This document shows positions 1-52,049 of a stretch of DNA of 63,323 nt, piece after piece. A program made the position numbers and the translations under genes. The notes beneath the pieces are model-generated. The model saw only the letters and a list, made by a program, of their open reading frames with translations. It ran no database searches and was not told the origin of the DNA. Position 1 is the stretch's first letter, and every line of letters begins with the position of its first letter. The DNA is from a virus (taxonomy: Duplodnaviria > Caudoviricetes). The stretch covers positions 1 through 63,323 of IMG/VR virus record IMGVR_UViG_3300023284_000199; one strand, given 5' to 3'.

Positions 1-27
1 CGTGGATTAGTATACTTGTAATGATCA

Positions 28-369
28 TCAACCATCGTCTTCTTCATCCGAGGGATCAAAATCGACAATCAGTTTAATGACCCTGCCATCTTTATTACGC
101 TCGATATAAACCGGATATGAACCGTCTCCGTAGCCTGTTTGAACTATGGCAGCAGCAGGCATGTTAGAACCTTCAGCTTGATACGTTGTCGTACCCTTGT
201 TAGGTCCAACTTCCATTTTTCTCAATACCTGATCACAGAATTCATACCAAGTACCTTTGAAATGATCGGTGTTATCCGCAGTCATGAAATAGCAGGGATC
301 ACCTACAATCATACAGCCTGCATCAACAGGTAACTCTGCTATCTTTTCCAAAACTGGAACCCGCCACAT
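28..369 (-). CDS. DUF4241-like hypothetical early protein
   Basis: 113 aa; motifs VDAGCMIVGDPCY and TGYGDGSYPVY typical of DUF4241-like proteins. Confidence 0.55.
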   Translation of the reverse strand: MWRVPVLEKIAELPVDAGCMIVGDPCYFMTADNTDHFKGTWYEFCDQVLRKMEVGPNKGTTTYQAEGSNMPAAAIVQTGYGDGSYPVYIERNKDGRVIKLIVDFDPSDEEDDG

Positions 370-370
370 A

Positions 371-781
371 TCAGTTACTCCTTATCCAATACATTTCACC
401 ATCATAAGCAATCGAGCAATAGTCCTGCTTTAACTGTTCGGCAGCTTGACACCAATCGATAGCCGTGTAAGGCCAATGTTCCTCGATTACATAAATATCT
501 TTTGCCATATCTTCGGCGTATTCAGTGAAATAATCTTCGGAGATAACTGACTCTCCATGATGAAAATCAGAACTGTAAGACTCAGCTTCTTCGACAAACT
601 CATTCAGAGCTTCTAACTCTTCGTATTCCTCGAAAAGATCGGTTTCGGTTCCATCATCATCATCAACCCAAAATTCGATTTCACCATCTGTACGAAAAGG
701 CGTATGATCAGCAAATAAATCCTTTAAATCCTCAACTCGCTCAAGGATATCTCGACTGTCAATCATATCTCCGAATTCCAT
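371..781 (-). CDS. acidic ArdA-like antirestriction/DNA-mimic protein (C-terminal-domain-like)
   Basis: 136 aa, very D/E-rich; C-terminal EYAEDMAKDI..WPYTAIDW..AAEQLKQDY..DGEMYWIR resembles the ArdA C-terminal domain. Confidence 0.5.
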   Translation of the reverse strand: MEFGDMIDSRDILERVEDLKDLFADHTPFRTDGEIEFWVDDDDGTETDLFEEYEELEALNEFVEEAESYSSDFHHGESVISEDYFTEYAEDMAKDIYVIEEHWPYTAIDWCQAAEQLKQDYCSIAYDGEMYWIRSN

Positions 782-782
782 C

Positions 783-992
783 TTATATCTCCCTGACCTT
801 TACTTTGCCACTCCAACCATATTTTTCAAGCCTTACATGCTTAACCGTATCAAACATAATCACCACCACTGCATCATGAATAACTTCAAAACCGAATTTC
901 TCATAATGAGCAATAGCTTTTTTCATACTTTTGAATTCGGTAAGCATGTTAGCTACAATCCTTTTATCTCTAGTTGGCCGCGATTTTTCCAT
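783..992 (-). CDS. hypothetical protein
   Basis: The track's TTG start at 1082 is a TTGACA promoter element; ATG at 992 (MEKSRPT) is more plausible. Confidence 0.5.
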   Translation of the reverse strand: MEKSRPTRDKRIVANMLTEFKSMKKAIAHYEKFGFEVIHDAVVVIMFDTVKHVRLEKYGWSGKVKVREI

Positions 993-1053
993 TGTTCCAC
1001 AGCTAAGTAAACTCCGCCAACTCCTATGTTTTCCCGCCGCCACGTTAGCTTTA

Positions 1054-1082
1054 CAAATAGGGGGTATTACCTCTAATGTCAA
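1054..1082 (-). promoter_or_regulatory. sigma70-like promoter
   Basis: TTGACA-17nt-TATTTG on minus strand; shares 16-bp AATGTCAAGAACTAAT with the promoter at 1337-1365. Confidence 0.45.
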
Positions 1083-1085
1083 GAA

Positions 1086-1313
1086 CTAATTTTGAAAATG
1101 ACTCATCCGAGTCTGATATCGCAAAAAGTTCTGTACCTGACCGAGAAAAATTACCGCGTTAGCATCTCTCACATAATGCTTCTTTCGCTCAATCATCTTA
1201 TCGGCTTCACGCATGGCTTGCCTTTTGCTAACCGTTGAATCCGATACCAAACTATCAACTAAACCAAACAAATCGAAAGCTTGATTCGTCGTAGTCTCTT
1301 TGGCACTATACAT
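1086..1313 (-). CDS. hypothetical protein
   Basis: 75 aa ORF with AGGAAGG SD. Confidence 0.65.
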   Translation of the reverse strand: MYSAKETTTNQAFDLFGLVDSLVSDSTVSKRQAMREADKMIERKKHYVRDANAVIFLGQVQNFLRYQTRMSHFQN

Positions 1314-1336
1314 AGTTCACCTTCCTTTCTAAAAAC

Positions 1337-1365
1337 AATATGAACTAGATTGCCTTCAATGTCAA
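1337..1365 (-). promoter_or_regulatory. sigma70-like promoter
   Basis: TTGACA-17nt-CATATT on minus strand. Confidence 0.55.
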
Positions 1366-1522
1366 GAACTAATCTCTCTTGGTTCTATCATATTTACTAG
1401 TGTCATCCAATTTCGTCGGATAATCCCTGCCATCATCTTTAAATGTGACCACCCAAGCATATATCAGCATACAAATACCACCACCAATAAAACCACTTAT
1501 GAATCCGAGAAAGAATAGCATC

Positions 1523-1687
1523 TCAATTCCCTTTGAAGCGCCAGTGATCCGGCCCGATGGTTATGAACAAGGTATCCTCGCTCTTGTCACGAACCACCCT
1601 AGCTTGACCTTTGGTGTAGAAGTACCCGAGGTCTTTACGCACTGTGCCATCGTCTGTACGCAGCGTAAACAGCTTCAAACCCTTCAT
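1523..1687 (-). CDS. small hypothetical protein (54 aa, below track cutoff)
   Basis: Read by hand: MKGLKLFTLRTDDG...IGPDHWRFKGN; AAGGA SD; directly follows the 1691 ORF. Confidence 0.55.
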   Translation of the reverse strand: MKGLKLFTLRTDDGTVRKDLGYFYTKGQARVVRDKSEDTLFITIGPDHWRFKGN

Positions 1688-1690
1688 GGT

Positions 1691-2059
1691 CTAATCCTTC
1701 CATCGCTTGTACTGATTTTCAATACGCTTTGCAATCTGTTCGAAGGTCTTCCCGCTATCGTTCATGTTAGCTAACGTGTTTTGATCGAACATAGGCTGAT
1801 TCTTACGGTGGTTCTTACTAGTGTGAAGCAATCCATGTTTTTCGAAAAACTTCTGAGTCAACATGTCACTTTTTGCCACCGACCTAATTGCATTATCACC
1901 GACGATTTCACGAAGAACACCCAAGCAACAATGCCTGACAGAGTTCGTCTTTCGATTGTCAACTTTACGAAGCTTTGCCTTACCTTGAACAAACTTGCCC
2001 GACCTCAAAGCTTCCACCCAATCGATTAGCAACGCCTTACCTGTTTTGTTCGTCTTCAT
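1691..2059 (-). CDS. hypothetical phage protein
   Basis: WVEALRSGKFVQG...HCCLGVL...LANMND.G.TFEQIA pattern common in phage early proteins; AAAGGAG SD before ATG 2059. Confidence 0.7.
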   Translation of the reverse strand: MKTNKTGKALLIDWVEALRSGKFVQGKAKLRKVDNRKTNSVRHCCLGVLREIVGDNAIRSVAKSDMLTQKFFEKHGLLHTSKNHRKNQPMFDQNTLANMNDSGKTFEQIAKRIENQYKRWKD

Positions 2060-2123
2060 AGTCCTGACTCCTTTCAAAAGTCTGTCGTCTGTAATTTATT
2101 ATCGTAGGAATTAAATGGTAGCA

Positions 2124-2402
2124 TCACACCCCATACCTTTCATTTTCAAGCATGTATTCAGCTTCAGTTTGTAAAGTACATGCGACAAATATAGGATCAA
2201 TAACACCATTGTCAACAAGTTCTTTGATAAAATTACCAAAAGCTTGGTCAACAACATCCATTTTTCTTCGGATTTCATCTATCTCAGGTCTGCTATTTTC
2301 TACAGTCTCATGTACAAAATCAGCAAATTCTGATTTAGTAAAACCCGATATTTTAGACTCGGTGTTATCTACCACCAACTTTATCTTATTATTTGGATTC
2401 AT
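2124..2402 (-). CDS. hypothetical protein
   Basis: 92 aa; GGAGG SD; 4-nt overlap with upstream gene. Confidence 0.65.
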   Translation of the reverse strand: MNPNNKIKLVVDNTESKISGFTKSEFADFVHETVENSRPEIDEIRRKMDVVDQAFGNFIKELVDNGVIDPIFVACTLQTEAEYMLENERYGV

Positions 2403-2734
2403 ACCCCGCCCTCCTTTGGATTCATACCCCGGTTCTCTTTTTCAGCCTCTAACTCTGTGATTCGTTCCTCTAACTTTTCGTTTTCCCTATTTAATTCCTT
2501 TATGTATTGTTCTTTTTCTTTCATCTCTTCTTCCATCGAATCAACATCATCAACCATACTACCCATTTCTTGCTCATGATCTTCTTTGGACACATATTCA
2601 CCATTATCTATGTCAGTTTCCAATGCCAAAAGTTTACGCGCCATATCACACAGGACCGAGACAACATCACTCACACAAACCCAATCATATGTCCGCTCAA
2701 AATCATCAATCTCGTAATCTCTCAAATCATCCAT
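2399..2734 (-). CDS. acidic coiled-coil hypothetical protein
   Basis: 111 aa, E/D-rich heptad C-terminus; AAAGGA SD. Confidence 0.65.
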   Translation of the reverse strand: MDDLRDYEIDDFERTYDWVCVSDVVSVLCDMARKLLALETDIDNGEYVSKEDHEQEMGSMVDDVDSMEEEMKEKEQYIKELNRENEKLEERITELEAEKENRGMNPKEGGV

Positions 2735-2951
2735 GTTGAGTTATCCTTTCAATGAGCCTTAGTGATATTCACGGTGGCTCCATCATCAATAAGAATTTGA
2801 ACCTCTTCTGCGGATAAATACGCCCCAATATAGGGGTCTAAAGAGTTTTGTACTTTCGTCACACTAAATGGATGTCTCGACCGGGATGTTTGGTTCAACC
2901 ATACTATAATCTTTGGGCTTGTCATCAGTCTGTCTCCCTTTCGCTTTCCAA

Positions 2952-2980
2952 TACATAGGGCAGCTTACATACACTGTCAA
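2952..2980 (-). promoter_or_regulatory. leftward sigma70-like promoter with a GGGCAGCTT motif in its spacer
   Basis: TTGACA at 2980-2975, 17-nt spacer containing the repeat motif, weak -10. Confidence 0.4.
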
Positions 2981-3150
2981 GGAAAAAATCGCTAAACGAA
3001 AATAAAAAAAAATTCGGGGCAGCTTACTTACAAGGCGGGGCAGCTTCATTACACGCTTCCCAAATATATTGGGGCAGCTTACCTACACGCTTCCCAAATA
3101 TATTGGGGCAGCTTACCTACACGCTCGGGCAGCTTGCCTACACGCATGTT
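2958..3150 (+). repeat. array of six GGGCAGCTTnnnTACA direct repeats, including a 34-bp tandem duplication
   Basis: Copies at 2958, 3016, 3037, 3071, 3105 and 3127; ACACGCTTCCCAAATATATTGGGGCAGCTTACCT x2 at 3051-3118. Confidence 0.9.
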
Positions 3151-3207
3151 CCCGTTCTGTTCTTCGTTCCCGATTTGTTCCCGTTTCGTTCTGTTCACGT
3201 TCTGTTC
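3148..3207 (+). promoter_or_regulatory. array 1 of alphaproteobacterial LexA boxes (GTTC-N7-GTTC), 5 boxes
   Basis: GTTC pairs 11 nt apart: 3148/3159, 3166/3177, 3177/3188, 3188/3199, 3193/3204. Confidence 0.7.
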
Positions 3208-3342
3208 TTTTGAGATGATACAGTTAAGACTCATGACTATTTTCGATGTGTGACATTTTTGCCGAAAGAACAAAACGAGACCTCCCGGCAATTTTGGTTG
3301 TGCCAATCGCCAGAAAATACCCGCAAAAATCGTAGTCAATAG

Positions 3343-3355
3343 AATCAATAGGTTA
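3343..3355 (+). promoter_or_regulatory. IHF consensus site
   Basis: AATCAATAGGTTA matches WATCAANNNNTTR. Confidence 0.45.
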
Positions 3356-3519
3356 GCGGATTCCAGATCTGAGATTCCGAATAGCTGGCGACTTTTACAA
3401 CTTATTGAATCGTTGACAATTTTAGCCTCGCTTGTCCCTGCTGATGCCTGCCAGCTATGCCGACACCTAGCGCAACCGGAATCGCCTTGTGCAGCCTTCC
3501 TAGCGCGTCCTAGAAACAG

Positions 3520-3553
3520 AAAAAGGACTCTTGCCATTGCTGGCGTGAGTCCT
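3520..3553 (-). terminator. intrinsic terminator of the leftward AAA-ATPase operon
   Basis: AGGACTC..GCCA/TGGC..GAGTCCT hairpin next to an A-run (U-run on minus strand). Confidence 0.55.
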
Positions 3554-3636
3554 GTTCCTTGTCCTATTACTGTTGGCGCGATCATGCTGGCTTGTGTTGG
3601 TTCTCCTTCCTTCGGCTGTTGGTCTGTTGGCCGTTT

Positions 3637-3969
3637 CTATGCCCGACTCATATCCATCGCAACGGCGCGCATTTCAGACGCCATCGCATAGACCGACTCT
3701 GCCGGTTCAATGGTGCCAGTTTCAAAGGCGATGAATCCAGACTTACCGACAATGCCTGCCGCGATAATCTGATTCAAGCCTGCGTCTTTCCAGACTTCAT
3801 GCCCGACTTCGAATCTGTCTTGACCGGTTGTTTCATCGTGCCAGAGTCGGACTCGGATTCCACCTTCCCATGAAGCTACAACGGCTCCGATATTGGTTGC
3901 CTTATGCCCGCGTGCTGTTGCATTGGTTTGTCGGGCAGATTCGTCAATTTGAGCGTAAAAGTGACTCAT
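3637..3969 (-). CDS. hypothetical phage protein
   Basis: 110 aa, starts MSHFYAQI..ATARGHK; AAGGA SD. Confidence 0.75.
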   Translation of the reverse strand: MSHFYAQIDESARQTNATARGHKATNIGAVVASWEGGIRVRLWHDETTGQDRFEVGHEVWKDAGLNQIIAAGIVGKSGFIAFETGTIEPAESVYAMASEMRAVAMDMSRA

Positions 3970-3984
3970 GATATTAGTCCTTCC

Positions 3985-4176
3985 TTATAGGTTGATTTTC
4001 GCAACTCGCATAGATTCACAAGTCGCCTGAATCACATTCGAGATATTGCGGTAGGATTCCATTTTCGCTATGCAATCCTCGACACCATAGAAATCGGATT
4101 GATAGGATTCGACAACTGGACTCGCATCAGAGTCATACGAGAGAATCCAGACTGTTAGAATTATCAATTTTAGCAT
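3985..4176 (-). CDS. small protein with N-terminal hydrophobic segment
   Basis: 63 aa; MLKLIILTVWIL; two Cys; GGGAG SD. Confidence 0.6.
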   Translation of the reverse strand: MLKLIILTVWILSYDSDASPVVESYQSDFYGVEDCIAKMESYRNISNVIQATCESMRVAKINL

Positions 4177-4214
4177 GTTCTAATCTCCCGATTTAGCTTG
4201 CCAGGATTAACAAG

Positions 4215-4256
4215 CTAGGAAGGCGAGTCAGACCGGAGTCCGACTCGCTAACCTAG
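4215..4256. repeat. intergenic hairpin built from GANTC sites
   Basis: CTAGG..GCGAGTC.GAC-CGGA-GTC.GACTCGC..CCTAG inverted repeat. Confidence 0.6.
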
Positions 4257-4260
4257 ATAG

Positions 4261-4545
4261 TCAAGCCGCTATCGTTCTGCCGCGTGCTGGCTTCCTAGCC
4301 CTCCGTGGATCGGTTGCAGGATCGATGAAAACATAAACCGCGCCATCGAATTCGACTCGGCCTTCTTTTGCGCGCCGCTCATAATTCGGAAAATAGTGAT
4401 CACAAAACATTGAATCAGGTAATTGATTCTCCTTCTCCCATCGCCCGCACATTTGACGGCCACGGATTGAATCAACCACAAAAGCGCAAGTTTCACAATT
4501 CGGATTCGCGACTGGCTTGGTTTTCAATTTTGATAGGTCAGACAT
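4261..4545 (-). CDS. hypothetical Cys-containing protein
   Basis: 94 aa; CxxC...C..H; GAGGAG SD. Confidence 0.65.
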   Translation of the reverse strand: MSDLSKLKTKPVANPNCETCAFVVDSIRGRQMCGRWEKENQLPDSMFCDHYFPNYERRAKEGRVEFDGAVYVFIDPATDPRRARKPARGRTIAA

Positions 4546-4556
4546 AACAGACTCCT

Positions 4557-5402
4557 CTAATTTAGATAATTGGTGAAAACTTTACGCATATTATCTAGCG
4601 ATGATTCAATGGTTTTGAATCCCTTGTATCGAATCATAGGGACATGAATCACAGATTCATTATCCGGTTCGCTAGGGGTATCGCGGCAATCGCCGTAACC
4701 CGGATACCATCGAGTCGCGTGCTTTGCGTCCTGCTCCAATAATCTGAAATGAAGCATGCGCAAAACCGAGGGATGCGCCAGAATATAAGAGAACCGATCT
4801 AGTTCAAGAAACATACCAGGACTCTTGATAGGAAACTCTTGGCGGATATGTGTACCATCGTTTCCAGCCGTATCGATGTATCCGACTAACTCTATTTGGT
4901 ATCCCGCAGTTTCTAGGGCATCGATCATAGAAACTAGAGCGATGCCACGGTTAACGATGGTGTTATGTTTCACCATTCCCGCAACAGTTAGATTCGCCTC
5001 GATTTTCAAGATAGGCAAAACTGGAGAATTTACTTCTGAAAATGCGAGCATGGATTCTGGATTGCCGATTAGAAAATCAGGGACAGAAGGGACGAATCCA
5101 ACAATCGCATTTTCTAAGACTCGGATAGGTTTCGAATCTGTCAAATGCTTGGCTATATCTAAGCCTTGTCTAATCTTTGCCGTTCCTTCTGGCCAACCAT
5201 AGCGCGCAAGCTTCATAGCATCAGCAAACGAACGAATCCCTTCACCGAACCATTCCGGCGGATGACCTGAAATATTCAGAGTCGACATATGCTCATTAGC
5301 CGATTTTGACGGTTGCTCGCATTGATCAAGAAAAGCATCGAAACTTGGCCACGTTTCCATTTTAGGTTTACCGTTCACTTTCCTTTTCCTACGTCTTGCC
5401 AT
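4557..5402 (-). CDS. VWA-like partner of the MoxR AAA+ ATPase
   Basis: 281 aa, coupled to the ATPase; GFVPSVPDFLIGNPESM, RGIALVSMIDALE..G, LAHPSVLR segments; no canonical MIDAS. Confidence 0.55.
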   Translation of the reverse strand: MARRRKRKVNGKPKMETWPSFDAFLDQCEQPSKSANEHMSTLNISGHPPEWFGEGIRSFADAMKLARYGWPEGTAKIRQGLDIAKHLTDSKPIRVLENAIVGFVPSVPDFLIGNPESMLAFSEVNSPVLPILKIEANLTVAGMVKHNTIVNRGIALVSMIDALETAGYQIELVGYIDTAGNDGTHIRQEFPIKSPGMFLELDRFSYILAHPSVLRMLHFRLLEQDAKHATRWYPGYGDCRDTPSEPDNESVIHVPMIRYKGFKTIESSLDNMRKVFTNYLN

Positions 5403-6736
5403 TACATCGCCGCCTTGATTTTGCTTATCGTGGCCGAGTCAAGGTTGCGCCAGATTATCAGGTTCTCGACTTCCTTGAATCCCATGCCTTGAACATCGAT
5501 CAGACGCGAACCTTTTTCAGATGCCCTAGGACTCACAAGATGCTTGAGTCCAATGCTGGCGACTGCCTTGCGAGCCGACTGGACATAATCCACCCATTGC
5601 ATGTTCGTTGAAATCGCACGCTCTAACGACTCGTCAATATCGATAGGCAATTGAATAAAGCGGTCTAGAGTCGTTGCGTCCAATTGAACACGACCTACAT
5701 ATTCACGATCTTGGCCGAGTCCCCACGTGTTCGCGCAAGCTATGCACTTGAAGTCTGGGTGTTGCTTCGCCATGCCATTTGCAAAAGCACAATAACCGTT
5801 CGCGAGTGCCGCATTGACAGCTAACAAAGCATTGGGCGAACAGCCGTCCATTTCATCGAACACGAATCCGCCGCCTTGCGTGAAAGCACGGTAGAAATCG
5901 GTTTCAATATAGTTCCCGTTCGCGTCCATGTATCCAAAAATAGTAAACTTGGTATCAAAAGCACCTTGTAGATAAAACGGAATCCCTAACGCTTCGAAAG
6001 CTTGGACGGCCATATGTGACTTGCCCGTTCCAGAAGTGCCGACTAGATAAACGTGACTCTCCTGTAGAAGCTTAATCAATCGCGGCAATTCATGGTGAGT
6101 GAATCCTTCGACTGCCCGAGTCTCGCCATCACTTTCGACATGGACAACAGTAGGGGTCGGCGCGGAATGTTCCAGAATAAGGCGAACCGCTTGTGATTCC
6201 GTAAGTCCATGTTCTCCGATTAATTCGACAACTCGCGACTCGTCTAGATCAGCCGTTGTGTTTGCCGCTTCTGCTATTGCCCGGATTGCATCTTCCAAAA
6301 CGCTACCGTTGCCACCTGTAGGCTTCACTGGCGCGGATTCCGCAAGTTCTGATGCGTCCCTATCATCTAATACGGTAGCCAGCGTATCACCTTCCCTGAT
6401 GCTTTGATCAAATTCAGTACTTGTGACAACTTCATCGTTAATTGTTGCGATTGCAGAGTCATTACCGAAAGCAGACTCGCCAGTTTGCGCGGATTCTGTC
6501 CATTGGTAATTCTCAATAGTGAATCCCTGATCTACAAAATTCTTCCTAACTTTGACAAAATATCGACGATGATTCCACATTTTCGAAAGAGTCGTATGTC
6601 TCATTTTCTCGACTCGGTCGTCCGGGAATCCCAATTCTTTAGCCCATAACCTCGCTATATCAATGTTGTCATAATCGATGACCGTCTGACCATGTTCGCC
6701 TAGTAGGTCTTGATAATCTCTCGATAAAGTAAGCAT
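5402..6736 (-). CDS. MoxR/CbbQ-type AAA+ ATPase
   Basis: Walker A GTSGTGKS, Walker B FVFDEMD, sensor CANT, arginine finger LDATTLDRF; long N-terminal extension. Confidence 0.9.
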   Translation of the reverse strand: MLTLSRDYQDLLGEHGQTVIDYDNIDIARLWAKELGFPDDRVEKMRHTTLSKMWNHRRYFVKVRKNFVDQGFTIENYQWTESAQTGESAFGNDSAIATINDEVVTSTEFDQSIREGDTLATVLDDRDASELAESAPVKPTGGNGSVLEDAIRAIAEAANTTADLDESRVVELIGEHGLTESQAVRLILEHSAPTPTVVHVESDGETRAVEGFTHHELPRLIKLLQESHVYLVGTSGTGKSHMAVQAFEALGIPFYLQGAFDTKFTIFGYMDANGNYIETDFYRAFTQGGGFVFDEMDGCSPNALLAVNAALANGYCAFANGMAKQHPDFKCIACANTWGLGQDREYVGRVQLDATTLDRFIQLPIDIDESLERAISTNMQWVDYVQSARKAVASIGLKHLVSPRASEKGSRLIDVQGMGFKEVENLIIWRNLDSATISKIKAAM

Positions 6737-6886
6737 TTTCTAATGTCCTTTGATAGGGGTTGTAAGGCGTCTTATAGATGACGCAATAGGACATAGACCA
6801 TAGATAGGAAAATGAGTCAATAGAAGAAAAGACTCTTATTGCATGAATCGTGCCAAGTGAGGCAATCTAGGGATTCTGTAGTGATA

Positions 6887-7070
6887 CCTATATTACCTAT
6901 ATACTGGCGCATTATATAGGTATATAGGTAGGCTAAGCGGTTGATTCTAAAGAGATAATCGCTGCTCCTATATGCCTATATGGGATTGTGAAAATGTTGA
7001 AATATAGGAAGGGTGATTTATTGTTTAGAATCAATTACTTAGATTATCCTATATGCCTATATTACCTATA
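6887..7070. repeat. cluster of 10 CCTATA/TATAGG hexamers in direct and inverted orientation with two IHF consensus sites
   Basis: CCTATA at 6887, 6896, 6967, 6975, 7048, 7056, 7065; TATAGG at 6915, 6923, 7003; IHF matches 6934-6946 (-) and 7029-7041 (+). Confidence 0.75.
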
Positions 7071-7387
7071 CTAAAGAAGAGTCTTTCGCTTAGACTACAG
7101 ACTCATAGTGACTCGTTTCAGGATAATAGGTTGGATCTTGGACAGTGAATCGGGGTGATGTTAGGGGCAAAATTGACCACATCTGCCAAGCCTGAAATGG
7201 ACAGAAAATCACAAGACCCTTGCAATTGGGTTAAATATCCCCACATAATAAGACACTTGGACACAAAAACCCTTAAAAGGGGATAGAAAATAGCTAATTT
7301 GGTGGGTTTCTTGCTTCCCGTTGGATTTGGTATCCTTAGAATGTACCTAATAGTTAGCGAAATTCTTGAAAAAATCTCAATTTAATT

Positions 7388-7426
7388 GCAGCTTCAATAC
7401 AAGAGTTAGAGCAGCTTCAATACAAG
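7388..7426 (+). repeat. GCAGCTTCAATACAAG direct repeat x2 (variant of the GGGCAGCTT motif)
   Basis: Copies at 7388 and 7411. Confidence 0.85.
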
Positions 7427-7427
7427 A

Positions 7428-7535
7428 GGTCTGTTCTCCGTTCTCGGTCTGTTCTCCGTTCTCGGTCTGTTCTCCGTTCTCGGTCTGTTCTCCGTTCTCG
7501 GTCTGTTCTCCGTTCTCGGTCTGTTCTCCGTTCTC
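7428..7535 (+). repeat. 18-bp tandem repeat x6 (GGTCTGTTCTCCGTTCTC); LexA-box array 2
   Basis: Perfect tandem copies; each of 5 junctions forms GTTC-TCGGTCT-GTTC. Confidence 0.95.
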
Positions 7536-7628
7536 GGTCGGCCTCTGGCCTCGTGGGCTGTCGCTGGTCGGCCTCTGGCCTCGTGGGCTGTCGCTGGTCG
7601 GCCTCTGGCCTCGTGGGCTGTCGCTGGT
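7536..7628 (+). repeat. 30-bp GC-rich tandem repeat x3 (GGTCGGCCTCTGGCCTCGTGGGCTGTCGCT)
   Basis: Perfect tandem copies directly after the 18-bp array. Confidence 0.95.
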
Positions 7629-7632
7629 TGAT

Positions 7633-7815
7633 TCAATAGCCTAGATAATTCATCACGGCCTTCGAGGTGGCGGGAATAAATTCGAACTCATAAAAAGATT
7701 CGACTTTTCCGTCTTCGCGCCTTTTGGTGAACCACGTTTTGACTAAAATGTTGTTATGCTGACCTATGCAGCATTTTACTCCGTGGCGTTCCAAGCAGTT
7801 GATAAGTGCGTTCAT
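7633..7815 (-). CDS. hypothetical protein
   Basis: 60 aa, AAGGA SD, ends ..VMNYLGY; upstream TTGAAA-17-CATATC promoter-like sequence at 7876. Confidence 0.65.
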   Translation of the reverse strand: MNALINCLERHGVKCCIGQHNNILVKTWFTKRREDGKVESFYEFEFIPATSKAVMNYLGY

Positions 7816-7919
7816 TGGTCTGTTTCCTTGTGTTGCTCTATGACTTAGATATGGGCCACGTCTGTTGCGTTTTCAATAGTCCTGGCAGAAAAAGCTCAGA
7901 ACGTGATAAATGTGTCACA

Positions 7920-7979
7920 GTTCACCTTTTGTTCCCCTAAGCCGGTCCCGCGAGAACAAAAGGTGAACAAACCATGAAC
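7920..7979. promoter_or_regulatory. LexA-box array 3 (inverted pair plus one chained box)
   Basis: GTTCACCTTTTGTTC (7920-7934) and its perfect inverse GAACAAAAGGTGAAC (7954-7968), plus GAACAAACCATGAAC (7965-7979). Confidence 0.7.
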
Positions 7980-8128
7980 ATTGGGCAGCTTGCTAATATA
8001 CTGTTGATATATCAGTGTGACATAAATACAATGCATAAATATCACTGTGATATAAATGTCACACTCTTGATATCTAGCTGAAATCTGACTGATATATCAC
8101 TAGTGTATCGTTGCATAAATGTCACATA

Positions 8129-8229
8129 GAACAGAACAGGAACAAAGCATGAACAGATGAGAACGAATGAGAACAAACCATGAACAAAACGGGAACAAAA
8201 GGTGAACATAAGGAGAACAAACCCAGAAC
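8129..8229 (-). promoter_or_regulatory. LexA-box array 4: chained GAAC-N7-GAAC, 7 boxes
   Basis: GAAC at 8129, 8140, 8151, 8161, 8171, 8182, 8193, 8204, 8215, 8226 with variable spacers. Confidence 0.75.
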
Positions 8230-8542
8230 ACGACGATGGGGGGCCTATGGCTTTCTGAAACTAGAGCTTTTTTATTTTTTATAACCTTTTTGACAGCGGC
8301 GGCATGTGTGATTTTTATAACACAAAACACAGCTTTTTTCATGTTTTGAAACTATTTTCGCAATGGGAAATAAAAGCGAAATTTTTTATAGTTAATTCCC
8401 ATAGTAGAAAGAATCGTTTCATATTTTTTGAAATGATTCAAACAGGCTATAACCTTTATATTATAATTTTAAAACAGGCGATAACCTTCATGTTATTTTT
8501 AAGGGACAGTAGGGGCAGCTTGCCTGCACGCATGTTTTGACA

Positions 8543-13212: not shown

Positions 13213-15156
13213 TTGGTACACGAAAAAGACCCTAAAAGTCCTGAAACAACTTCTGTAGCATATGATGCTATGGTTGATAAGTGGGATATGATTGAAAAAC
13301 TATTAGGTGGTACTGCCGCACTTCGTAAGTCGGGCCAAGCGTATTTGCCTAGACACGAAGAAGAATCCAGTTCGGGTTATGAAGAACGTTTGAATAAAGC
13401 TACTTTGTTTAATATGTTGGAACTAACATTGAATTCTTTGGTAGGTAAACCGTTTTCAGAACCGTTAAAACTCAATGAAGACATTCCAGAACCTATCATG
13501 AACCTTACAAACGATATTGATCTTCAAGGTAATGAAATAAGTATATTTTGTCGTAACTGGTTTAAAACTGGTATAGCTAAAGCCTTTGCTCATGTATTGA
13601 TAGATTTTCCTACCCTTACTGATGAAGAGAAGTCTACAAGAAGCAAGGCAGATGACTTACAAGAGAATAGACGCCCTTATTGGGTATTGGTAAATCCTGA
13701 AAATGTTATTTTTGCTTATTCAGAGATAGAAAACGGTGCAGAAGTTCTAAAACATATAAGAATCAGGGAAATTGTCACTATTAAAGAAGGATTCGCTGAA
13801 ATATTCGTTGAACGTATCAGAGTCTTGGAACCTGGGACTTTTGAAATTTTTGAGAAGAGAAAAGACAAGAAAACCGGTAAAATCAAGTGGGTTAGTATCG
13901 AAGAAGGTACAACTGGCTTAGATATTATACCTTTGGTCACTTTTTATGCGGATCGTCAAGATTTGATGTTTGGTAAACCTCCTTTGGAAGATTTAGCCTT
14001 TTTAAACATACGTCATTGGCAGAGTACGTCTGATTTGATCAATATCTTGACTGTTGCCAGTTTTCCAATGCTTGCTGTTGCGGGAGCCACGGATGTAACC
14101 GGAAACACTATGGCTATCGGTCCAAGGCAGCTTCTAGGCACGAAAGACCCGAATGGTAGGTTCTATTACGTGGAACACACTGGTAGAGCTATTTCAGCCC
14201 TCAGAGAGGATTTAAAAGACGTTGAACAGATGATGGCTAGTTATGGAGCCGAATTCCTTAGACGTAAGCCCGGTGCCCAAACTGCTACGGAAAGAGCCTT
14301 GGATTCTTCGGAATCTATGAGTGATTTGAAAGATGCGACTCTTAGATTTGAAGATGTTATCAATAATGCTCTAGCCATCACTGCTATGTGGATGAAACTT
14401 GAAAGTGGCGGAACTGTTGAAATAAACACTGATTTTGATAATAGTAACGTGGATGAAGCCACTTTACGCAGTTTGTTGGAATCTCGTGCTAACGGTGATC
14501 TTTCTAGAGAAGATTTCTTGGCAGAATTGCAAAGATACGGAATTTTGTCTGATGACTTCGATTCTAAAACAAATCTTATGAGATTGTTGATGGAAGTCGC
14601 AACAATGGGATTAGACGTAAAGACAAAACATTCTGGAGTCATGATAAGCGACCGAAAAAAGGACATTTTTCTTGAAACGCTCGCTTCAACTGGTCAAGTC
14701 CAAATATCTGCCAATGTTGCGGGATATGCAGATACAAGTCACCTTCAACGTGTCAGAAGAACAGATGACAAGTTTGCAGAGCGTTGGGAACAAGCTTTGG
14801 AAGCTGCTGCTGATATACTTGAAGATGAAGCGCAAAGACGTGCGGTAGCCGGTGTTTATGAAGATATTTACTACAAAGGTGAAGTTGTAGGTTCTCAGAT
14901 TAAATACAGTGACCAACTGTTAATGTTTCTATTAAGAGGTGCTAAGCCCGGTAAGTACCGTGAAAGTATTAGAATTGATGCGACGCTCAAAGGTAAAGTT
15001 GGTGTGGCTGTTTTGCCTATGACTGCTATTAATACAGACCTTTGGGAACAATCAGCAGCAGCAGTGCATGAAGCACAAAAGAAAACACCCCCACTTATAG
15101 ATTTAGAGCCGGGACAGTATGAAGATGTAACTCCTACTGAGATAGTGAGAAAATAA
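13213..15156 (+). CDS. portal protein (DUF4055 type) fused to a C-terminal terminase-small-subunit-like domain
   Basis: aa 1-~460: LLGGT..YLP..EE...Y..RL..A, KPPLEDLAFLNIRHWQSTSD portal motifs; aa ~465-647: FLETLASTGQV..FAERWEQALE..LEDEAQRRAV.G..KYSDQLLMFLLRGAKPGKYRE. Confidence 0.88.
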   Translation: MVHEKDPKSPETTSVAYDAMVDKWDMIEKLLGGTAALRKSGQAYLPRHEEESSSGYEERLNKATLFNMLELTLNSLVGKPFSEPLKLNEDIPEPIMNLTNDIDLQGNEISIFCRNWFKTGIAKAFAHVLIDFPTLTDEEKSTRSKADDLQENRRPYWVLVNPENVIFAYSEIENGAEVLKHIRIREIVTIKEGFAEIFVERIRVLEPGTFEIFEKRKDKKTGKIKWVSIEEGTTGLDIIPLVTFYADRQDLMFGKPPLEDLAFLNIRHWQSTSDLINILTVASFPMLAVAGATDVTGNTMAIGPRQLLGTKDPNGRFYYVEHTGRAISALREDLKDVEQMMASYGAEFLRRKPGAQTATERALDSSESMSDLKDATLRFEDVINNALAITAMWMKLESGGTVEINTDFDNSNVDEATLRSLLESRANGDLSREDFLAELQRYGILSDDFDSKTNLMRLLMEVATMGLDVKTKHSGVMISDRKKDIFLETLASTGQVQISANVAGYADTSHLQRVRRTDDKFAERWEQALEAAADILEDEAQRRAVAGVYEDIYYKGEVVGSQIKYSDQLLMFLLRGAKPGKYRESIRIDATLKGKVGVAVLPMTAINTDLWEQSAAAVHEAQKKTPPLIDLEPGQYEDVTPTEIVRK

Positions 15157-48529: not shown

Positions 48530-48605
48530 GGGAGTATAGCCCAACGGCAGAGGCGGCAAGCTTAGACCTTGTACAGTGTAGGTTCGAATCCTATTACTCC
48601 TACCA
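48530..48605 (+). tRNA. tRNA-Leu(TAG), short variable loop
   Basis: Cloverleaf; loop CT-TAG-AC; TTCGAAT; encoded CCA. Confidence 0.88.
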
Positions 48606-48610
48606 ATTAT

Positions 48611-48686
48611 GGGGATATAGCCCAACGGCAGAGGCATCGGGTTTAAATTCCAATCAGTGTAGGTTCGACTCCTACTATCCCTACCA
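48611..48686 (+). tRNA. tRNA-Leu(TAA), short variable loop
   Basis: Paralog of the previous gene; loop TT-TAA-AT; CCA. Confidence 0.85.
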
Positions 48687-48692
48687 ATTAGA

Positions 48693-48950
48693 GTGTGTGA
48701 TATGGCATACTGTAGACAAATTGAAAGCGAGTGTGACGTTTACTGTTATGAAATGCGTGTAGACGGTAAATCAAAATGGATCACTCATTGGGTTGGATTT
48801 ACTGAAACTTTTTCAGACCCTAGTTTATATGAGTTTCGCCATCGTTTAAAAACAATCCGTTCATATGGATATCTAGTACCTGACAGAGTATTTGAACGGA
48901 TAGAAAGAGAAATGGCGGGACAAAAAAGGGAAAGTGTGGTGACAGAATGA
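48693..48950 (+). CDS. hypothetical protein within the tRNA cluster
   Basis: MAYCR...CDVYCYE..L...GY.VPDRVFERIE pattern. Confidence 0.6.
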   Translation: MCDMAYCRQIESECDVYCYEMRVDGKSKWITHWVGFTETFSDPSLYEFRHRLKTIRSYGYLVPDRVFERIEREMAGQKRESVVTE

Positions 48951-49138
48951 CTGCTATATGTCATGATTGTGCAATTGCGAAAGGAGCAAGAGAAATTAAA
49001 GGTCATGTATGTACTATGAGTATGGGCTTATGTACCTATTGCAAAGAAGAAAAAGTTATATCAGGTACAAATGATTATCAGTGGCCTTTATCTAATGGAA
49101 AAGGATTTCACCCTATATTTAAATGGGGTTGGGATTAA
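48947..49138 (+). CDS. small Cys-rich (zinc-binding-like) protein
   Basis: CHDC...C...CTYC; ATGA overlap. Confidence 0.6.
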   Translation: MTAICHDCAIAKGAREIKGHVCTMSMGLCTYCKEEKVISGTNDYQWPLSNGKGFHPIFKWGWD

Positions 49139-49142
49139 CTAA

Positions 49143-49216
49143 GAAGCGGTGGCCGATTGGCTAGGTGACAGATTGCAAATCTGTTTAAGTGGGTTCGATT
49201 CCCACCTGCTTTTCCA
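49143..49216 (+). tRNA. tRNA-Cys(GCA)
   Basis: Loop TT-GCA-AA; U73; CCA. Confidence 0.9.
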
Positions 49217-49217
49217 A

Positions 49218-49293
49218 GGATCGGTAGCTCAGAGGCCAGAGCAGAGGACTTTTAATCCTCGTGCCGTGAGTTCAAATCTCACTCGATCCTCCA
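49218..49293 (+). tRNA. tRNA-Lys(TTT)
   Basis: Loop CT-TTT-AA; CCA. Confidence 0.92.
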
Positions 49294-49297
49294 ATTA

Positions 49298-49373
49298 TCG
49301 ACGGTGTGGTGTAATGGCAGCACAAAAGACTGTGACTCTTTTAGTGTGGGTTCGAATCCCATCATCGCGACCA
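49298..49373 (+). tRNA. tRNA-His(GTG), no G-1, A73, bulged acceptor stem
   Basis: Loop CT-GTG-AC; CG[A]CGGTG/CATCGCG; CCA. Confidence 0.78.
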
Positions 49374-49409
49374 AAAATACTATGCAGTGAATAACAGGAA
49401 AGGAATGAA

Positions 49410-49692
49410 TATGGAAGCGCATGAAATAGATAAATATTTTCCTGACTGTGAAAGTCTAGAAAGTGTTGTAAACGAAATGTACACTAGGCTGTTGAAATAT
49501 ATATATATATGTCATGTGGTAAACTGTGAAGGAATTGATTTTCTAGAAATGCATATACATGATAGCGATCCTTTATTTACAGATTTAGAAAAAGAATTCA
49601 TGGAAATGGCTGGAAAAAATGCAGATTTATTAGCTAATAGATCATGGAAAAGAAAGAAGGCAAAGTTAAAAGTTAATCTTGGTGTAGCTTAA
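49410..49692 (+). CDS. hypothetical protein within the tRNA cluster
   Basis: ORF 49387-49692 in the track; AAGGA SD suggests a start around 49405-49411 (approximate); overlaps tRNA-Pro. Confidence 0.5.
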
Positions 49693-49751
49693 CGGCAAAG
49701 TGATGGACTTGGAATCCATAGACGAAGGTTCGACTCCTTCCACCTTGACCA
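49678..49751 (+). tRNA. tRNA-Pro(TGG)
   Basis: Loop CT-TGG-AA; two U-U pairs in the acceptor stem; CCA. Confidence 0.85.
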
Positions 49752-49771
49752 ATTTTTTTTTAATAAAGTGG

Positions 49772-49800
49772 TTGACAACGAAAGGCAGGATCACTATATT
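49772..49800 (+). promoter_or_regulatory. second sigma70 promoter in the tRNA cluster
   Basis: TTGACA-17nt-TATATT. Confidence 0.75.
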
Positions 49801-49805
49801 AAAGT

Positions 49806-49887
49806 TTCGGATGGGCGGTTGACCGTATCGCACTGGTCGGATAGTAAGGCCAGAATAAAATGGGTTTGATTCCCATATCCGTGACCA
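49806..49887 (+). ncRNA. tRNA-like RNA with expanded 9-nt anticodon loop
   Basis: CGGAT/ATCCG acceptor, GCG/CGC D-stem, CTGGTC-GGATAGTAA-GGCCAG, ATGGG-TTTGATT-CCCAT, ACCA end. Confidence 0.6.
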
Positions 49888-49896
49888 AGTTTTATG

Positions 49897-49970
49897 GGAC
49901 GATTATGCATTTGCTAATGCAGCGCCATATTGGGGCGTGAAAGTCGGTTGAATTCCGGCATTGTCCGACA
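49897..49970 (+). ncRNA. divergent tRNA-like RNA (loop AT-ATT-GG), no CCA
   Basis: GGACGAT/ATTGTCC, GCAT/ATGC, GCGCC/GGCGT, GTCGG-TTGAATT-CCGGC. Confidence 0.55.
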
Positions 49971-49975
49971 ATTTT

Positions 49976-50049
49976 GTGGGTGTAGTTCAAAGGCAGAGCA
50001 AGAGGTTTCCACCCTCTAAACGCGGGTTCGAATCCTGTCACCCATACCA
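49976..50049 (+). tRNA. tRNA-Gly(TCC)
   Basis: Loop TT-TCC-AC; A73; CCA. Confidence 0.88.
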
Positions 50050-50051
50050 AT

Positions 50052-50156
50052 ACGTGTAGTTGTTAGAATCTATGGGCCGTCACATTAGATGATGGATTAG
50101 GCCGAAGTGGTTAGCGATTCACTATAGATTTGGGCAAAGCAGTACCACATACACGT
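50052..50156 (+). ncRNA. candidate multi-stem structured RNA
   Basis: ACGTGTA/TACACGT closing stem, AATCTATG/TATAGATT inner stem, two terminal hairpins. Confidence 0.45.
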
Positions 50157-50158
50157 TT

Positions 50159-50235
50159 GCTGTAGGGGCCATAGCGGCAGAGGCACTGGATTGTCGATCC
50201 AGAGATAGCGGGTTCAAATCCTGTCTACAGCGCCA
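50159..50235 (+). tRNA. tRNA-Asp(GTC)
   Basis: Loop TT-GTC-GA; G73; CCA. Confidence 0.88.
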
Positions 50236-50240
50236 ATTTT

Positions 50241-50286
50241 GAAGCCTGTTATCATGGTACTTAGTGCGGTTAACAGGTTTCTTTTT
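50241..50286 (+). terminator. hairpin with U-tract (terminator or processing stem)
   Basis: GAAGCCTGTTA...TAACAGGTTTC followed by T5. Confidence 0.5.
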
Positions 50287-50287
50287 A

Positions 50288-50398
50288 GTGGAGGGTTTCT
50301 AGGCTGGTAGGAAGTCTATATAGGAAGACGGTTTTCGGAGGTGTCCTATGTCCTTGATAATCGTTTAGACTTTGGGTTCAATCCCCTAACTTTTCCGC
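50288..50398 (+). ncRNA. tRNA-like scaffold with a large, possibly pseudoknotted insert at the anticodon position
   Basis: GTGGAGGG/TTTTCCGC, D-like CTAGGCTGGTAG, AAGTCTA/TAGACTT stem, GGG-TTCAATC-CCC T-arm. Confidence 0.5.
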
Positions 50399-50410
50399 AT
50401 AAACTTTTAT

Positions 50411-50486
50411 TTCTAGGTAGCTAATTCGGCAAAGCGACTGGCTGTTAACCAGGGATATGTAGGTTCAAGTCCTACCCTAGAAGCCA
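50411..50486 (+). tRNA. tRNA-Asn(GTT)
   Basis: Loop CT-GTT-AA; G73; CCA. Confidence 0.9.
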
Positions 50487-50491
50487 ATTAT

Positions 50492-50543
50492 GGGGCGTAA
50501 ACTGGTAATTCTAGATTGTAGGTTCGATTCCTACTGCGCTCCC
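50492..50543 (+). ncRNA. anticodon-armless mini tRNA-like RNA with G3.U70
   Basis: GGGGCGTA/TGCGCTCC stem, D-loop-like AACTGGTAA, canonical T-arm GTAGG-TTCGATT-CCTAC, no anticodon arm. Confidence 0.6.
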
Positions 50544-50551
50544 TACGTTAC

Positions 50552-50642
50552 GGATAGACAAGCCAATGGGCGGTGGTCGTGGTTTTGAAAACCATTAGGA
50601 GTAATCAGTCTCGTGGGGGTTCGACTCCCTCTCTATCCGCCA
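50552..50642 (+). tRNA. tRNA-Ser(TGA)
   Basis: Loop TT-TGA-AA; long variable arm; G73; CCA. Confidence 0.88.
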
Positions 50643-50755
50643 ATTCGAAAGGAACTGAAATGGAATATCTATTTGGTATGTTATGCGTATTGGTTCTTTT
50701 AGGTTTAGGACCACCCATTTTACACAAACTCAATGTGTGGATTTGGAATGATTAA

Positions 50756-50829
50756 TCTGGTGTAGCTCAATGGCAGAGCAAGTGGCTGATGACCGCTGTA
50801 CGAGGGTTCGATTCCTTCTACCAGTACCA
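50756..50829 (+). tRNA. tRNA-Ile(GAT)
   Basis: Loop CT-GAT-GA; CCA. Confidence 0.87.
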
Positions 50830-50833
50830 AAAT

Positions 50834-50904
50834 GCCTGGGCGTGGTCGGGCGGAAGTCTCATAAGCTTCCTAGCTGAGTGGTTCAATTCCCTCTCTTGGC
50901 ACCA
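50834..50904 (+). tRNA. atypical tRNA(CAT) (Met-type) with reduced D-arm
   Basis: GGAAGT-CTCATAA-GCTTCC arm; bulged T-stem with GGTTCAATTCC; CCA. Confidence 0.6.
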
Positions 50905-50908
50905 ATTC

Positions 50909-50998
50909 GGATAGGCAAACCAATAGGCGGTGGTCGCTGTTTGCTAGACAGTTAGGAGTGTAAGTCTCGTGGGGGTTCGACTCCCTCTCTATCCGCCA
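50909..50998 (+). tRNA. tRNA-Ser(GCT)
   Basis: Paralog of Ser(TGA); loop TT-GCT-AG; long variable arm; CCA. Confidence 0.88.
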
Positions 50999-51066
50999 AG
51001 TTTTAATGTCCCATATGTGGGATAATGTTGCATTAAAGCATCATAAGGAGGTTAAATGTTGCTTTT

Positions 51067-51258
51067 ATGGTACATATAAGTAATGCAATGATTGACCGAA
51101 TCTATGAAATGTGGCATAGTATGTTACGATATTGTCACAGTGAAGAATTTGACCAGAAAATGTTTGGAACAATGGTCAGTAATTTTAACCATACCTACAA
51201 AAGATGCAGTGTAGGGGAACAAGGAGAATACCATAGGAGAATATCTTTGGGACTGTAG
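51067..51258 (+). CDS. hypothetical protein within the tRNA cluster
   Basis: 63 aa; AAGGAGG nearby; overlaps the tRNA-Ala 5' end. Confidence 0.4.
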   Translation: MVHISNAMIDRIYEMWHSMLRYCHSEEFDQKMFGTMVSNFNHTYKRCSVGEQGEYHRRISLGL

Positions 51259-51326
51259 CTCAATTTGGGAGAGCGTCTGCCTTGCAAGCAGAGGGTTGTG
51301 AGTTCGAGTCTCACCAGTATCCACCA
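51249..51326 (+). tRNA. tRNA-Ala(TGC), bulged acceptor stem
   Basis: Loop CT-TGC-AA; GGGACTG/CAGT[A]TCC retains G3.U70; CCA. Confidence 0.88.
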
Positions 51327-51331
51327 ATTAA

Positions 51332-51406
51332 CGACTCGTAGCTTAATGGGAAAGCCTGCCGCTCATAACGGTAAAGATGGGGGTTCAAGTCCCTTCGGGT
51401 CAACCA
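51332..51406 (+). tRNA. tRNA(CAT): fMet-like C1.A72 mismatch, or Ile2
   Basis: Loop CT-CAT-AA; lacks the three G-C anticodon-stem pairs of initiators; CCA. Confidence 0.85.
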
Positions 51407-51413
51407 AACATAT

Positions 51414-51488
51414 TCCGAGGTAGCTCAATGGTAGAGCGGCATGTTGAAGCCTTGCGCGTCGGTGGTTCGATTCCATCTCTCGGGACCA
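51414..51488 (+). tRNA. tRNA-Phe(GAA)
   Basis: Loop TT-GAA-GC; CCA. Confidence 0.87.
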
Positions 51489-51495
51489 ATTTAAT

Positions 51496-51572
51496 GCCTC
51501 ACGTAACTCAAATGGCAGAGTAGCTGTTTTGTAATCAGCAAGTTGTGGGTTCAAGTCCTACCGGGGGCACCA
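51496..51572 (+). tRNA. tRNA-Thr(TGT), bulged acceptor stem
   Basis: Loop TT-TGT-AA; GCCTC[A]CG/CGGGGGC; CCA. Confidence 0.87.
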
Positions 51573-51590
51573 ATAGAAAGGGATTAAATC

Positions 51591-51767
51591 GTGATTGAAG
51601 AATCATTAACAAGAAATTGTCCCTTTTGTGGCAGTAGTAATATAGGGAAAAGTTCAGTATTTAACGAATTCCGTTTTGTATGTCGTGTTTGTGACACACA
51701 CGGTCCCTTAATAGTAGGAGAACAAACGTGGGGAAAAGCAATTGATGCATGGAATAGTGGGGATTAG
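51591..51767 (+). CDS. Lar-family restriction-alleviation-like zinc protein (58 aa, below track cutoff)
   Basis: Read by hand: MIEESLTRNCPFCGS...VCRVCDTHGP...KAIDAWNSGD; AAGGGA SD. Confidence 0.65.
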   Translation: MIEESLTRNCPFCGSSNIGKSSVFNEFRFVCRVCDTHGPLIVGEQTWGKAIDAWNSGD

Positions 51768-51832
51768 CTCAGCGGTAGAGCCTCGGTGTTACATACCGGG
51801 TGTCATAGGTTCGAATCCTATATCTCCAACCA
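51758..51832 (+). tRNA. tRNA-Val(TAC)
   Basis: Loop GT-TAC-AT; CCA. Confidence 0.87.
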
Positions 51833-51835
51833 TTA

Positions 51836-52043: not shown

Positions 52044-52049
52044 ATACAT

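Follow-up and report, generated by a model that had tools for sequence, protein, structure and literature searches.

A phage gene cassette recoded to hold one GANTC site per 48 nucleotides and bordered by 11-nucleotide repeat arrays

We analysed the complete record IMGVR_UViG_3300023284_000199, a linear contig of 63,323 bases from a tailed virus (Caudoviricetes) with 40.3% G+C and an estimated completeness of ∼83% (hereafter the window), and describe in it an island of the word GANTC. The island spans positions 3228–7152 and contains 81 sites, one per 48 nucleotides (nt); its G+C content is 46% compared with 40% elsewhere, and its GC skew is ∼0 compared with ∼0.2–0.3 in the rest of the window. 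It holds five genes on the minus strand. The largest encodes an AAA+ ATPase of 444 residues (5402–6736; Pfam AAA_5; PHROG 249, CobS-like; 23 GANTC sites) and adjoins the gene for the usual partner of this ATPase, a 281-residue DUF7192 protein (4557–5402; PHROG 1909; 14 sites). Three small open reading frames (ORFs) complete the set: a 94-residue ORF with cysteine pairs and no family (4261–4545; 5 sites), a 63-residue ORF that has a hydrophobic N-terminus and cannot be placed convincingly in a family (3985–4176; 7 sites), and a 110-residue ORF with no family (3637–3969; 10 sites). Pfam, PHROGs, NCBIfam, PADLOC and the ESM Atlas returned nothing usable for these three ORFs, and our searches found no close relatives of the 110-residue ORF or, among genome contigs and viral contigs, of the DUF7192 protein. 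Non-coding DNA upstream of the ATPase gene (6737–7152) carries 10 sites together with short 'cctatat'-type repeats. The DNA downstream of the last gene (3228–3636) carries 8 sites and contains a terminator-like hairpin on the minus strand (∼3515–3560) followed by a U-run, and a second strong hairpin with an 11-bp stem made of GANTC words lies directly past the 94-residue ORF (4205–4262, minus strand). An earlier sequence-only reading of this DNA had described GANTC-built hairpins at 3524 and 4215 and a run of the word at 3844. The run is present, and the stems of both hairpins hold GANTC words and fold far better than shuffled sequences (−28.6 kcal/mol, z −6.4, and −30.0 kcal/mol, z −5.8).

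The cassette is bordered by arrays of GAACA units with an 11-nt period. The left-border TGTTC/GAACA array lies at 3147–3210 on the minus strand (phased matches 3166–3202), and the right-hand GAACA array, inverted with respect to the left one, at 7920–8230 on the plus strand (matches 7954–8229). A third array is located at 52533–52569; all arrays of the window account for 10 matches versus 0.79 by chance. The period is reminiscent of parC of plasmid R1, where the iterons measure 11 bp.

The GANTC density is 20.6/kb inside 3228–7152 and 3.3/kb in the remaining 59.4 kb, which contain 197 sites. The borders are sharp, as the first site at 3228 is preceded by one at 2538 and the last at 7147 is followed by one at 7630. 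The sequence-only reading had given about 80 sites in 3.9 kb where about 15 are expected, and about 16 in bases 1–3000; the first two figures agree with our count of 81 and with mononucleotide shuffles of the island (15.2 ± 3.9, maximum 31, n = 2000), and the third is 15 when counted by program. Dinucleotide-preserving shuffles of the same interval yield 21.7 ± 4.3 sites (maximum 38, n = 2000). For codon controls we used the five minus-strand ORFs, leaving out a 168-residue ORF that crosses the repeat arrays (3079–3585) and overlapping plus-strand ORFs. These genes contain 59 GANTC sites, compared with 13.7 ± 3.6 when codon order is shuffled (maximum 27) and 27.2 ± 3.1 when synonymous codons are shuffled (maximum 38; n = 1000 each). 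The enrichment thus survives every composition-controlled and codon-preserving shuffle. Coding sites are spread over frames 0, 1 and 2 (20, 17 and 22, respectively), and the density is alike in non-coding (22 sites in 935 nt, 23.5/kb) and coding DNA (59 sites in 2991 nt, 19.7/kb).

The enrichment is specific for the exact word. GANTC occurs at 5.4 times expectation in the island, whereas the runner-up among all XYNZW words reaches only 1.8 times; the 12 one-letter neighbours of GANTC range from 0.39 to 1.42 times, and neither GATC nor GANNTC is enriched there. The central base is free (A24, C21, G16 and T20), the flanking bases are flat, and GAWTC (44 sites) and GASTC (37 sites) are each enriched. 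Sites are spaced slightly more evenly than at random (coefficient of variation 0.82 versus 0.97 ± 0.10), and 5.4% of random placements are equally even, so that this evenness is not significant. CGCG, GCGC and TCGA are over-represented in the islands too, but this excess follows from the di- and trinucleotide make-up and was dropped as a word-specific signal.

The density is paid for in codons and in amino acids. Where a GANTC can be written by synonymous choice, the island genes do so in 59 of 101 cases (58%), compared with 122 of 974 (12.5%) in 23 other genes that we chose across the phage. The proteins themselves permit more sites than their homologues do: the ATPase permits 0.105 GANTC per residue (homologues 0.068 ± 0.013; 2 of 73 are equally high) and the DUF7192 protein 0.097 (homologues 0.072 ± 0.016; 5 of 53), after removal of duplicates and of alignments shorter than 150 residues from both homologue sets. 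The proposed richness of the island proteins in Glu-Ser and Asp-Ser dipeptides is borne out, with 22 [D/E]S in 987 residues compared with 8.6 ± 2.8 in residue shuffles (maximum 20, n = 1000), a 2.6-fold excess; the other proteins of the phage have 105 versus 97.4 expected. We ruled out that the protein family itself is a carrier of GANTC: in 90 ATPase-homologue loci (112 loci minus identical sequences and loci with short flanks) the homologous gene pair contains 412 sites versus 467.9 expected (0.88) and the flanks 2434 versus 2834.9 (0.86). Recoding of the cassette, at the level of both synonymous codons and amino acids, has thus brought its DNA to one GANTC per 48 nt.

The nearest backbone relative that we found, the 44,394-nt contig G007:C12 (capsid 76%, terminase 59% and portal 55% identical), has an island of its own. 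Its bases 1–4990 contain 74 GANTC sites versus 19.0 expected (maximum 39 in 2000 shuffles), and its remaining bases are depleted of the word (103 versus 148.3 expected). This second island is at least 5.0 kb long, compared with 3.9 kb in the window. The genes that it covers include homologues of the ATPase (identical at 151 of 365 aligned residues, 41%) and of the DUF7192 protein (70 of 255, 27%), and our search found no close relatives of this ATPase homologue. Small ORFs unrelated to those of the window also belong to it, as does an upstream stretch of 1.3 kb (23 sites versus 4.6 expected). Its genes contain 42 sites and fill 42 of 94 synonymous opportunities; shuffling codon order leaves 12.2 sites, and shuffling synonymous codons 21.2 ± 2.7 (maximum 31, n = 1000). 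TGTTC/GAACA arrays of 11-nt period start 2 nt past the last site of this island. The individual sites are different: of the ATPase sites (23 in the window and 16 in G007:C12) 3 align with each other, and of the DUF7192 sites (14 and 9) 1 does, so that 4 of the 37 sites in the two genes of the window coincide with a site of the relative. Because site positions have turned over in this way, the density has been maintained and not inherited. The selection at the DNA level for GANTC that the sequence-only reading had suspected is thus supported by shuffles, word specificity, codon occupancy and homologues, and is kept in a diverged relative. Taken together, these results show a real GANTC island in which selection has acted on the DNA itself and on precisely this word.

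The distribution of the cassette is patchy. Four complete backbone relatives with capsids 48–72% identical lack the ATPase, the island (at most 12 GANTC per 2 kb) and the GAACA arrays; the arrays (in the window and at 4984–5137 of locus L151) were found only in the two island-bearing phages, and in none of the four complete relatives. Cassette, arrays and island hence co-occur or are jointly absent. Relatives of the ATPase (46 viral and 66 metagenome loci, all at most 48% identical) have at most 18 GANTC per 2 kb, compared with 46 in the window, and none of these 112 loci has an island apart from G007:C12. Relatives of the terminase (14 loci, at most 52% identical) also stay at or below 18 sites in any 2 kb, and a distant-mode blastn search of positions 3000–7400 against cultured phages gave no match. 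Outside the islands GANTC is not enriched in the window (0.93 times expectation) and is depleted in the related backbones (0.27–0.80 times). Two of the complete relatives, G004 and G005 (L137–L144; 59% G+C), contain 107 versus 288 and 78 versus 292 expected sites genome-wide.

We conclude that something reads GANTC in this cassette, and a reader of the CcrM type is plausible from the form of the word. The N6-adenine methyltransferases of the M.HinfI/CcrM family are a class that reads exactly GANTC, with a free central base and no flanking requirement. The equal enrichment of all four central bases fits recognition of this type and argues against CcrM variants restricted to GAWTC. Such variants occur in some marine lineages (PMC8919816). 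The reading we favour, as a tentative preference given slightly under an even chance, is that the island is a cis-acting array of GANTC sites for a putative CcrM/M.HinfI-type reader, held in an array-bordered cassette. The enzyme would have the specificity of the M.HinfI/CcrM N6-adenine methyltransferases and could be supplied by the host or by the unsequenced 17% of the phage; dense methylation would then work in cis on the cassette. Methylation could distinguish the incoming, fully methylated copy from fresh replicas and thereby switch the cassette, either via a GcrA-like cofactor of RNA polymerase that responds to methylation or via the protein that binds the flanking arrays. As for the host, the tail module hints at phages of Alphaproteobacteria: its genes match families of the gene-transfer-agent type, and 43 of the 44 phage records matched by the tail hub protein are phages of this class, as are 14 of the 15 listed best matches of an A1-like protein encoded at 56441–58096. 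Alphaproteobacterial genomes under-represent GANTC (PMC8919816).

Several observations weigh against this reading. The window, ∼83% complete, has no match to the methyltransferase families PF01555, PF02086, PF05063 and PF05869 or to GcrA (PF07750), and 40% G+C is low for cultured bacteria that carry CcrM. G007:C12 was binned with a genome labelled Bacteroidota, although binning of phage contigs is unreliable. That genome has no close homologue of CcrM; its two PF01555 enzymes are a type III Mod and a 255-residue enzyme that is only weakly CcrM-like (E 1.5e-17 over 68 residues), and its chromosome pieces do not avoid GANTC (87 versus 71.3 and 75 versus 64.1 expected). Promoter control, moreover, needs no sites throughout coding DNA. 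The sequence-only reading had proposed recruitment of GcrA and RNA polymerase; this finds no support in the promoter-type context YGAKTCK, which we take to be the extended GcrA context and to which 17 of the 81 sites conform in either orientation versus 20.2 expected. Finally, the island is written in a dialect of its own. With GANTC removed, its relative synonymous codon usage correlates with that of four other gene groups at r 0.27–0.36, whereas those groups correlate with each other at 0.53–0.95; its tetranucleotide usage correlates with its own backbone at r 0.05 and with the G007:C12 island at 0.64, compared with 0.71 between the two backbones and 0.52–0.72 between 4-kb backbone chunks and the backbone. 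G+C at third codon positions is 0.44 in the island and 0.22–0.39 in the other gene groups. Such codon and tetranucleotide usage weakens the idea of a methylation-read array, because an imported module would look alike. Two ideas connected with the G007:C12 bin were dropped: a copying of the host's dialect by the island is not supported for this bin, whose chromosome pieces fit the backbone (r 0.42–0.62) better than the island (0.36–0.42), and contig C11 of the bin has an N6 methyltransferase but no protein in common with the window, no arrays and no island.

The cassette also stands apart in its palindromes. G+C-rich 6-nt palindromes are purged outside the island (33 versus 232 expected, 0.14) and much less so inside (14 versus 23.6, 0.59), and of the 64 palindromes of 6 nt that can be formed, 28 are missing altogether outside (1–3227 and 7153–63323; 59.4 kb). 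The purge suggests hosts with many restriction systems; the same palindromes are far less purged in the four complete relatives (0.62–0.76). A different word, GGNCC, is absent from the island (0 versus 10.9 expected) and unremarkable in the rest of the window (89 versus 93.4) and in the island of the relative (14 versus 13.7). To place the arrays in a wider context, we scanned viral contigs for four phased GAACA units and obtained at least 116 loci. Among the loci listed, two (L200 and L251) have a GANTC-rich block beside GANTC-poor DNA, and the other 114 have at most 19 sites per 2 kb. The L200 block (4001–8500) contains 52 sites versus 17.5 ± 4.1 expected (rest of the locus 10 versus 20.5) and the L251 block (2001–4995) 31 versus 11.4 ± 3.3 (rest 1 versus 7.2). 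Neither shares a protein with the window by tblastn, and we treat them as leads only. Both blocks, each ∼3-fold enriched, have a PHROG 2554 protein and lie near a large terminase gene. The four GANTC-rich blocks (window, G007:C12, L200 and L251) share one dialect (r 0.44–0.69), have no candidate gene common to all of them, and are less palindrome-purged than their flanks in 4 of 4 contigs (block/flank observed over expected 0.59/0.14, 0.98/0.40, 1.85/0.90 and 0.61/0.00).

One alternative is an imported module. The cassette would have come from another phage lineage or from a pool of exchangeable cassettes, in either case with GANTC-rich DNA, and its density would be a relic that serves no function in this phage. 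Even without GANTC, the island departs from the rest in G+C, GC skew, codon and tetranucleotide usage; it keeps palindromes that the backbone has lost, all four complete relatives do without it, identity between the two phages is far lower for its proteins (41% and 27%) than for the capsid (76%), and four blocks speak one dialect. Atypical composition and codon usage are indeed those of a horizontally acquired island, and no mobility gene accompanies them: the five island genes match no integrase or transposase family, and as a possible insertion repeat there is only one pair of 24-nt direct repeats, 96% alike, at positions 3127 and 8513. A neutral density, however, would have decayed over the divergence to G007:C12, where the cassette sits in a similar place with the same arrays and an equally selected density made of different sites; the 58% occupancy and the shifted amino acids require long, continuing selection somewhere, and no donor emerged among the 112 ATPase-homologue loci. 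We therefore consider an imported leftover rather unlikely. The uniform density over coding and non-coding DNA, with no preferred positions, would suit a docking array, in which a DNA-binding protein of the phage or the host other than a methyltransferase, or a HinfI-like nuclease or nickase, binds the cassette for entry, packaging, shielding or compaction. The slightly even spacing points the same way, though not significantly, as does the position of the cassette 4.4 kb upstream of the large terminase gene (10 kb away in G007:C12), and shielding could explain why the blocks are less purged of palindromes. We know of no GANTC-binding protein of a non-methyltransferase kind, which counts against docking, and the four blocks have no candidate gene in common; we judge this explanation unlikely.

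The sequence-only reading had also raised a trans-acting sink, in which the sites absorb host CcrM or GcrA and disturb the cell cycle. GANTC is the CcrM word and copies of the island would multiply on replication, yet the enrichment is confined to one place, where 81 sites join the other 197 and raise the load only from ∼210 to 278, and the backbones described above are not enriched or are depleted. As a sink needs no locality, sharp borders or arrays, we regard it as very unlikely. An artefact, either a by-product of codon and amino-acid usage or a chimeric assembly, might be suspected from the atypical composition of a metagenomic contig. It has hardly any chance of being right: codon, synonymous and dinucleotide controls cannot account for the count, non-coding DNA is as dense as coding DNA, and the independent assembly G007:C12 shows the same architecture.

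Against this background, the array of sites for a CcrM-type reader can be compared with known systems. Dam GATC clusters act in cis at oriC with SeqA. The pac site of phage P1 likewise contains seven clustered Dam sites (PMC8919816). The likeness would lie in a local cluster of a methyltransferase word beside iteron-type arrays, by which methylation states of a replicon could be told apart; oriC and pac clusters, however, are ∼0.1–0.3 kb long (typically ∼0.2 kb), non-coding and made of another word, whereas here a whole operon of 3.9 kb is involved, 59 of its 81 sites lie in genes and its proteins have been reshaped. Control of sigma-70 promoters by CcrM and GcrA in Alphaproteobacteria uses the same word, and methylation can alter transcription in cis (PMC3667746, PMC4647560). 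The known cases involve one to a few promoter sites, compared with 74–81 sites across 4–5 kb including coding DNA in the two cassettes, and the extended GcrA-type context of the promoter regulon is not favoured at the island sites. DNA uptake sequences and Chi are functional words over-represented at a coding cost; they are asymmetric, 8–12 nt long, distributed genome-wide and read by uptake or RecBCD machinery. The island resembles them in that genes are recoded for a short word and inverted word pairs form terminator hairpins, and differs in that GANTC is a 5-nt palindrome confined to one cassette.

Phage work on short palindromes mostly concerns their avoidance. Restriction-site avoidance is also selection on a short palindrome, and the backbone of this phage strongly avoids other palindromes in the same manner, but at the island the sign is opposite, 5.4-fold up and local only, and the word is packed in at a cost in codons and amino acids. 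GANTC is depleted in about half of pelagiphages (PMC9516812) and low in gene-transfer-agent clusters (PMC9836097). In the available texts of the literature searched, which took in few subscription journals, we found no description of a local GANTC island in a phage. The kind of feature is conserved, and it goes together with flanking arrays and a distinct dialect; its reader and purpose we infer. A density kept while genes diverge implies that GANTC density is read during infection, either through a novel use of CcrM-type methylation by the host or by a DNA-binding factor of a new sort. Islands of GANTC that have GAACA arrays of 11-nt period at their borders could possibly, though we have more doubt than confidence in this, form an undescribed class of phage cis-elements: kilobase-scale 'epigenetic barcode' cassettes, exchanged between phages and with their own dialect, in which dense methylation or a protein coat marks the infecting genome against its replicas. 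Dense methylation or a coat might also exempt the cassette from restriction, given that the blocks escape the palindrome purge in 4 of 4 contigs. The signature of island plus arrays can be searched for in viral catalogues and may flag hosts that methylate GANTC.

The island is the part of a leftward, non-structural arm closest to a divergent control region. On the plus strand, packaging, head and tail genes (large terminase, portal, major head protein and tape measure) extend from ∼8.9 to 47 kb, with a distal tail module of Pfam families of the gene-transfer-agent type. The minus strand carries small ORFs at 28–7815 and replication and nucleotide genes at 52–63 kb; 22 tRNA genes are clustered at 48530–52243 (plus strand), between the lysis genes and the replication module. 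The portal ORF (13213–15156, plus strand) has a C-terminal extension (residues 471–616), for which the match is a PHROG with the annotation small terminase subunit. The gene at 56441–58096 (minus strand) encodes a homologue of the phage T5 A1 'DNA transfer protein', whose best matches are in phages of Rhodobacterales, Caulobacter and Rhizobium and in one Pseudanabaena phage (45–47% identity). First-step-transfer regions of the T5 type carry the pre-early genes A1 and A2; here the A1-like gene lies outside the island. Adjacent nucleotide-pool genes (54411–56453, minus strand) encode a DUF550-type dATP/dGTP diphosphohydrolase (PF18909), a nucleoside 2-deoxyribosyltransferase-like protein and MazG, and a ribonucleotide reductase gene adjoins this trio. 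PurZ (PF00709) has no match within the window. A modified base may thus be present in the DNA of this phage and, if so, would alter the reading of GANTC.

A scan for sigma-70 promoters and terminators performed no better than on shuffled sequence, and Rfam returned one sub-threshold microRNA-type match and nothing else. Tandem repeats lie to the right of the island (7388–7630), where perfect repeats of 6 × 18 nt (TGTTC type) and 3 × 30 nt (7428–7628) separate it from a 60-residue ORF (7633–7815). A 19-nt repeat is shared with a single contig, L062, which carries no homologue of the ATPase. Six tandem copies of a 17-nt motif that begins with GGGCAGCTT adjoin the left border on its outer side (2958–3143, plus strand). 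The GGGCAGCTT motif recurs at 8513 and 46985, at two module starts and always on the plus strand (11 matches versus 0.79 by chance), and could be a phage-specific promoter or operator.

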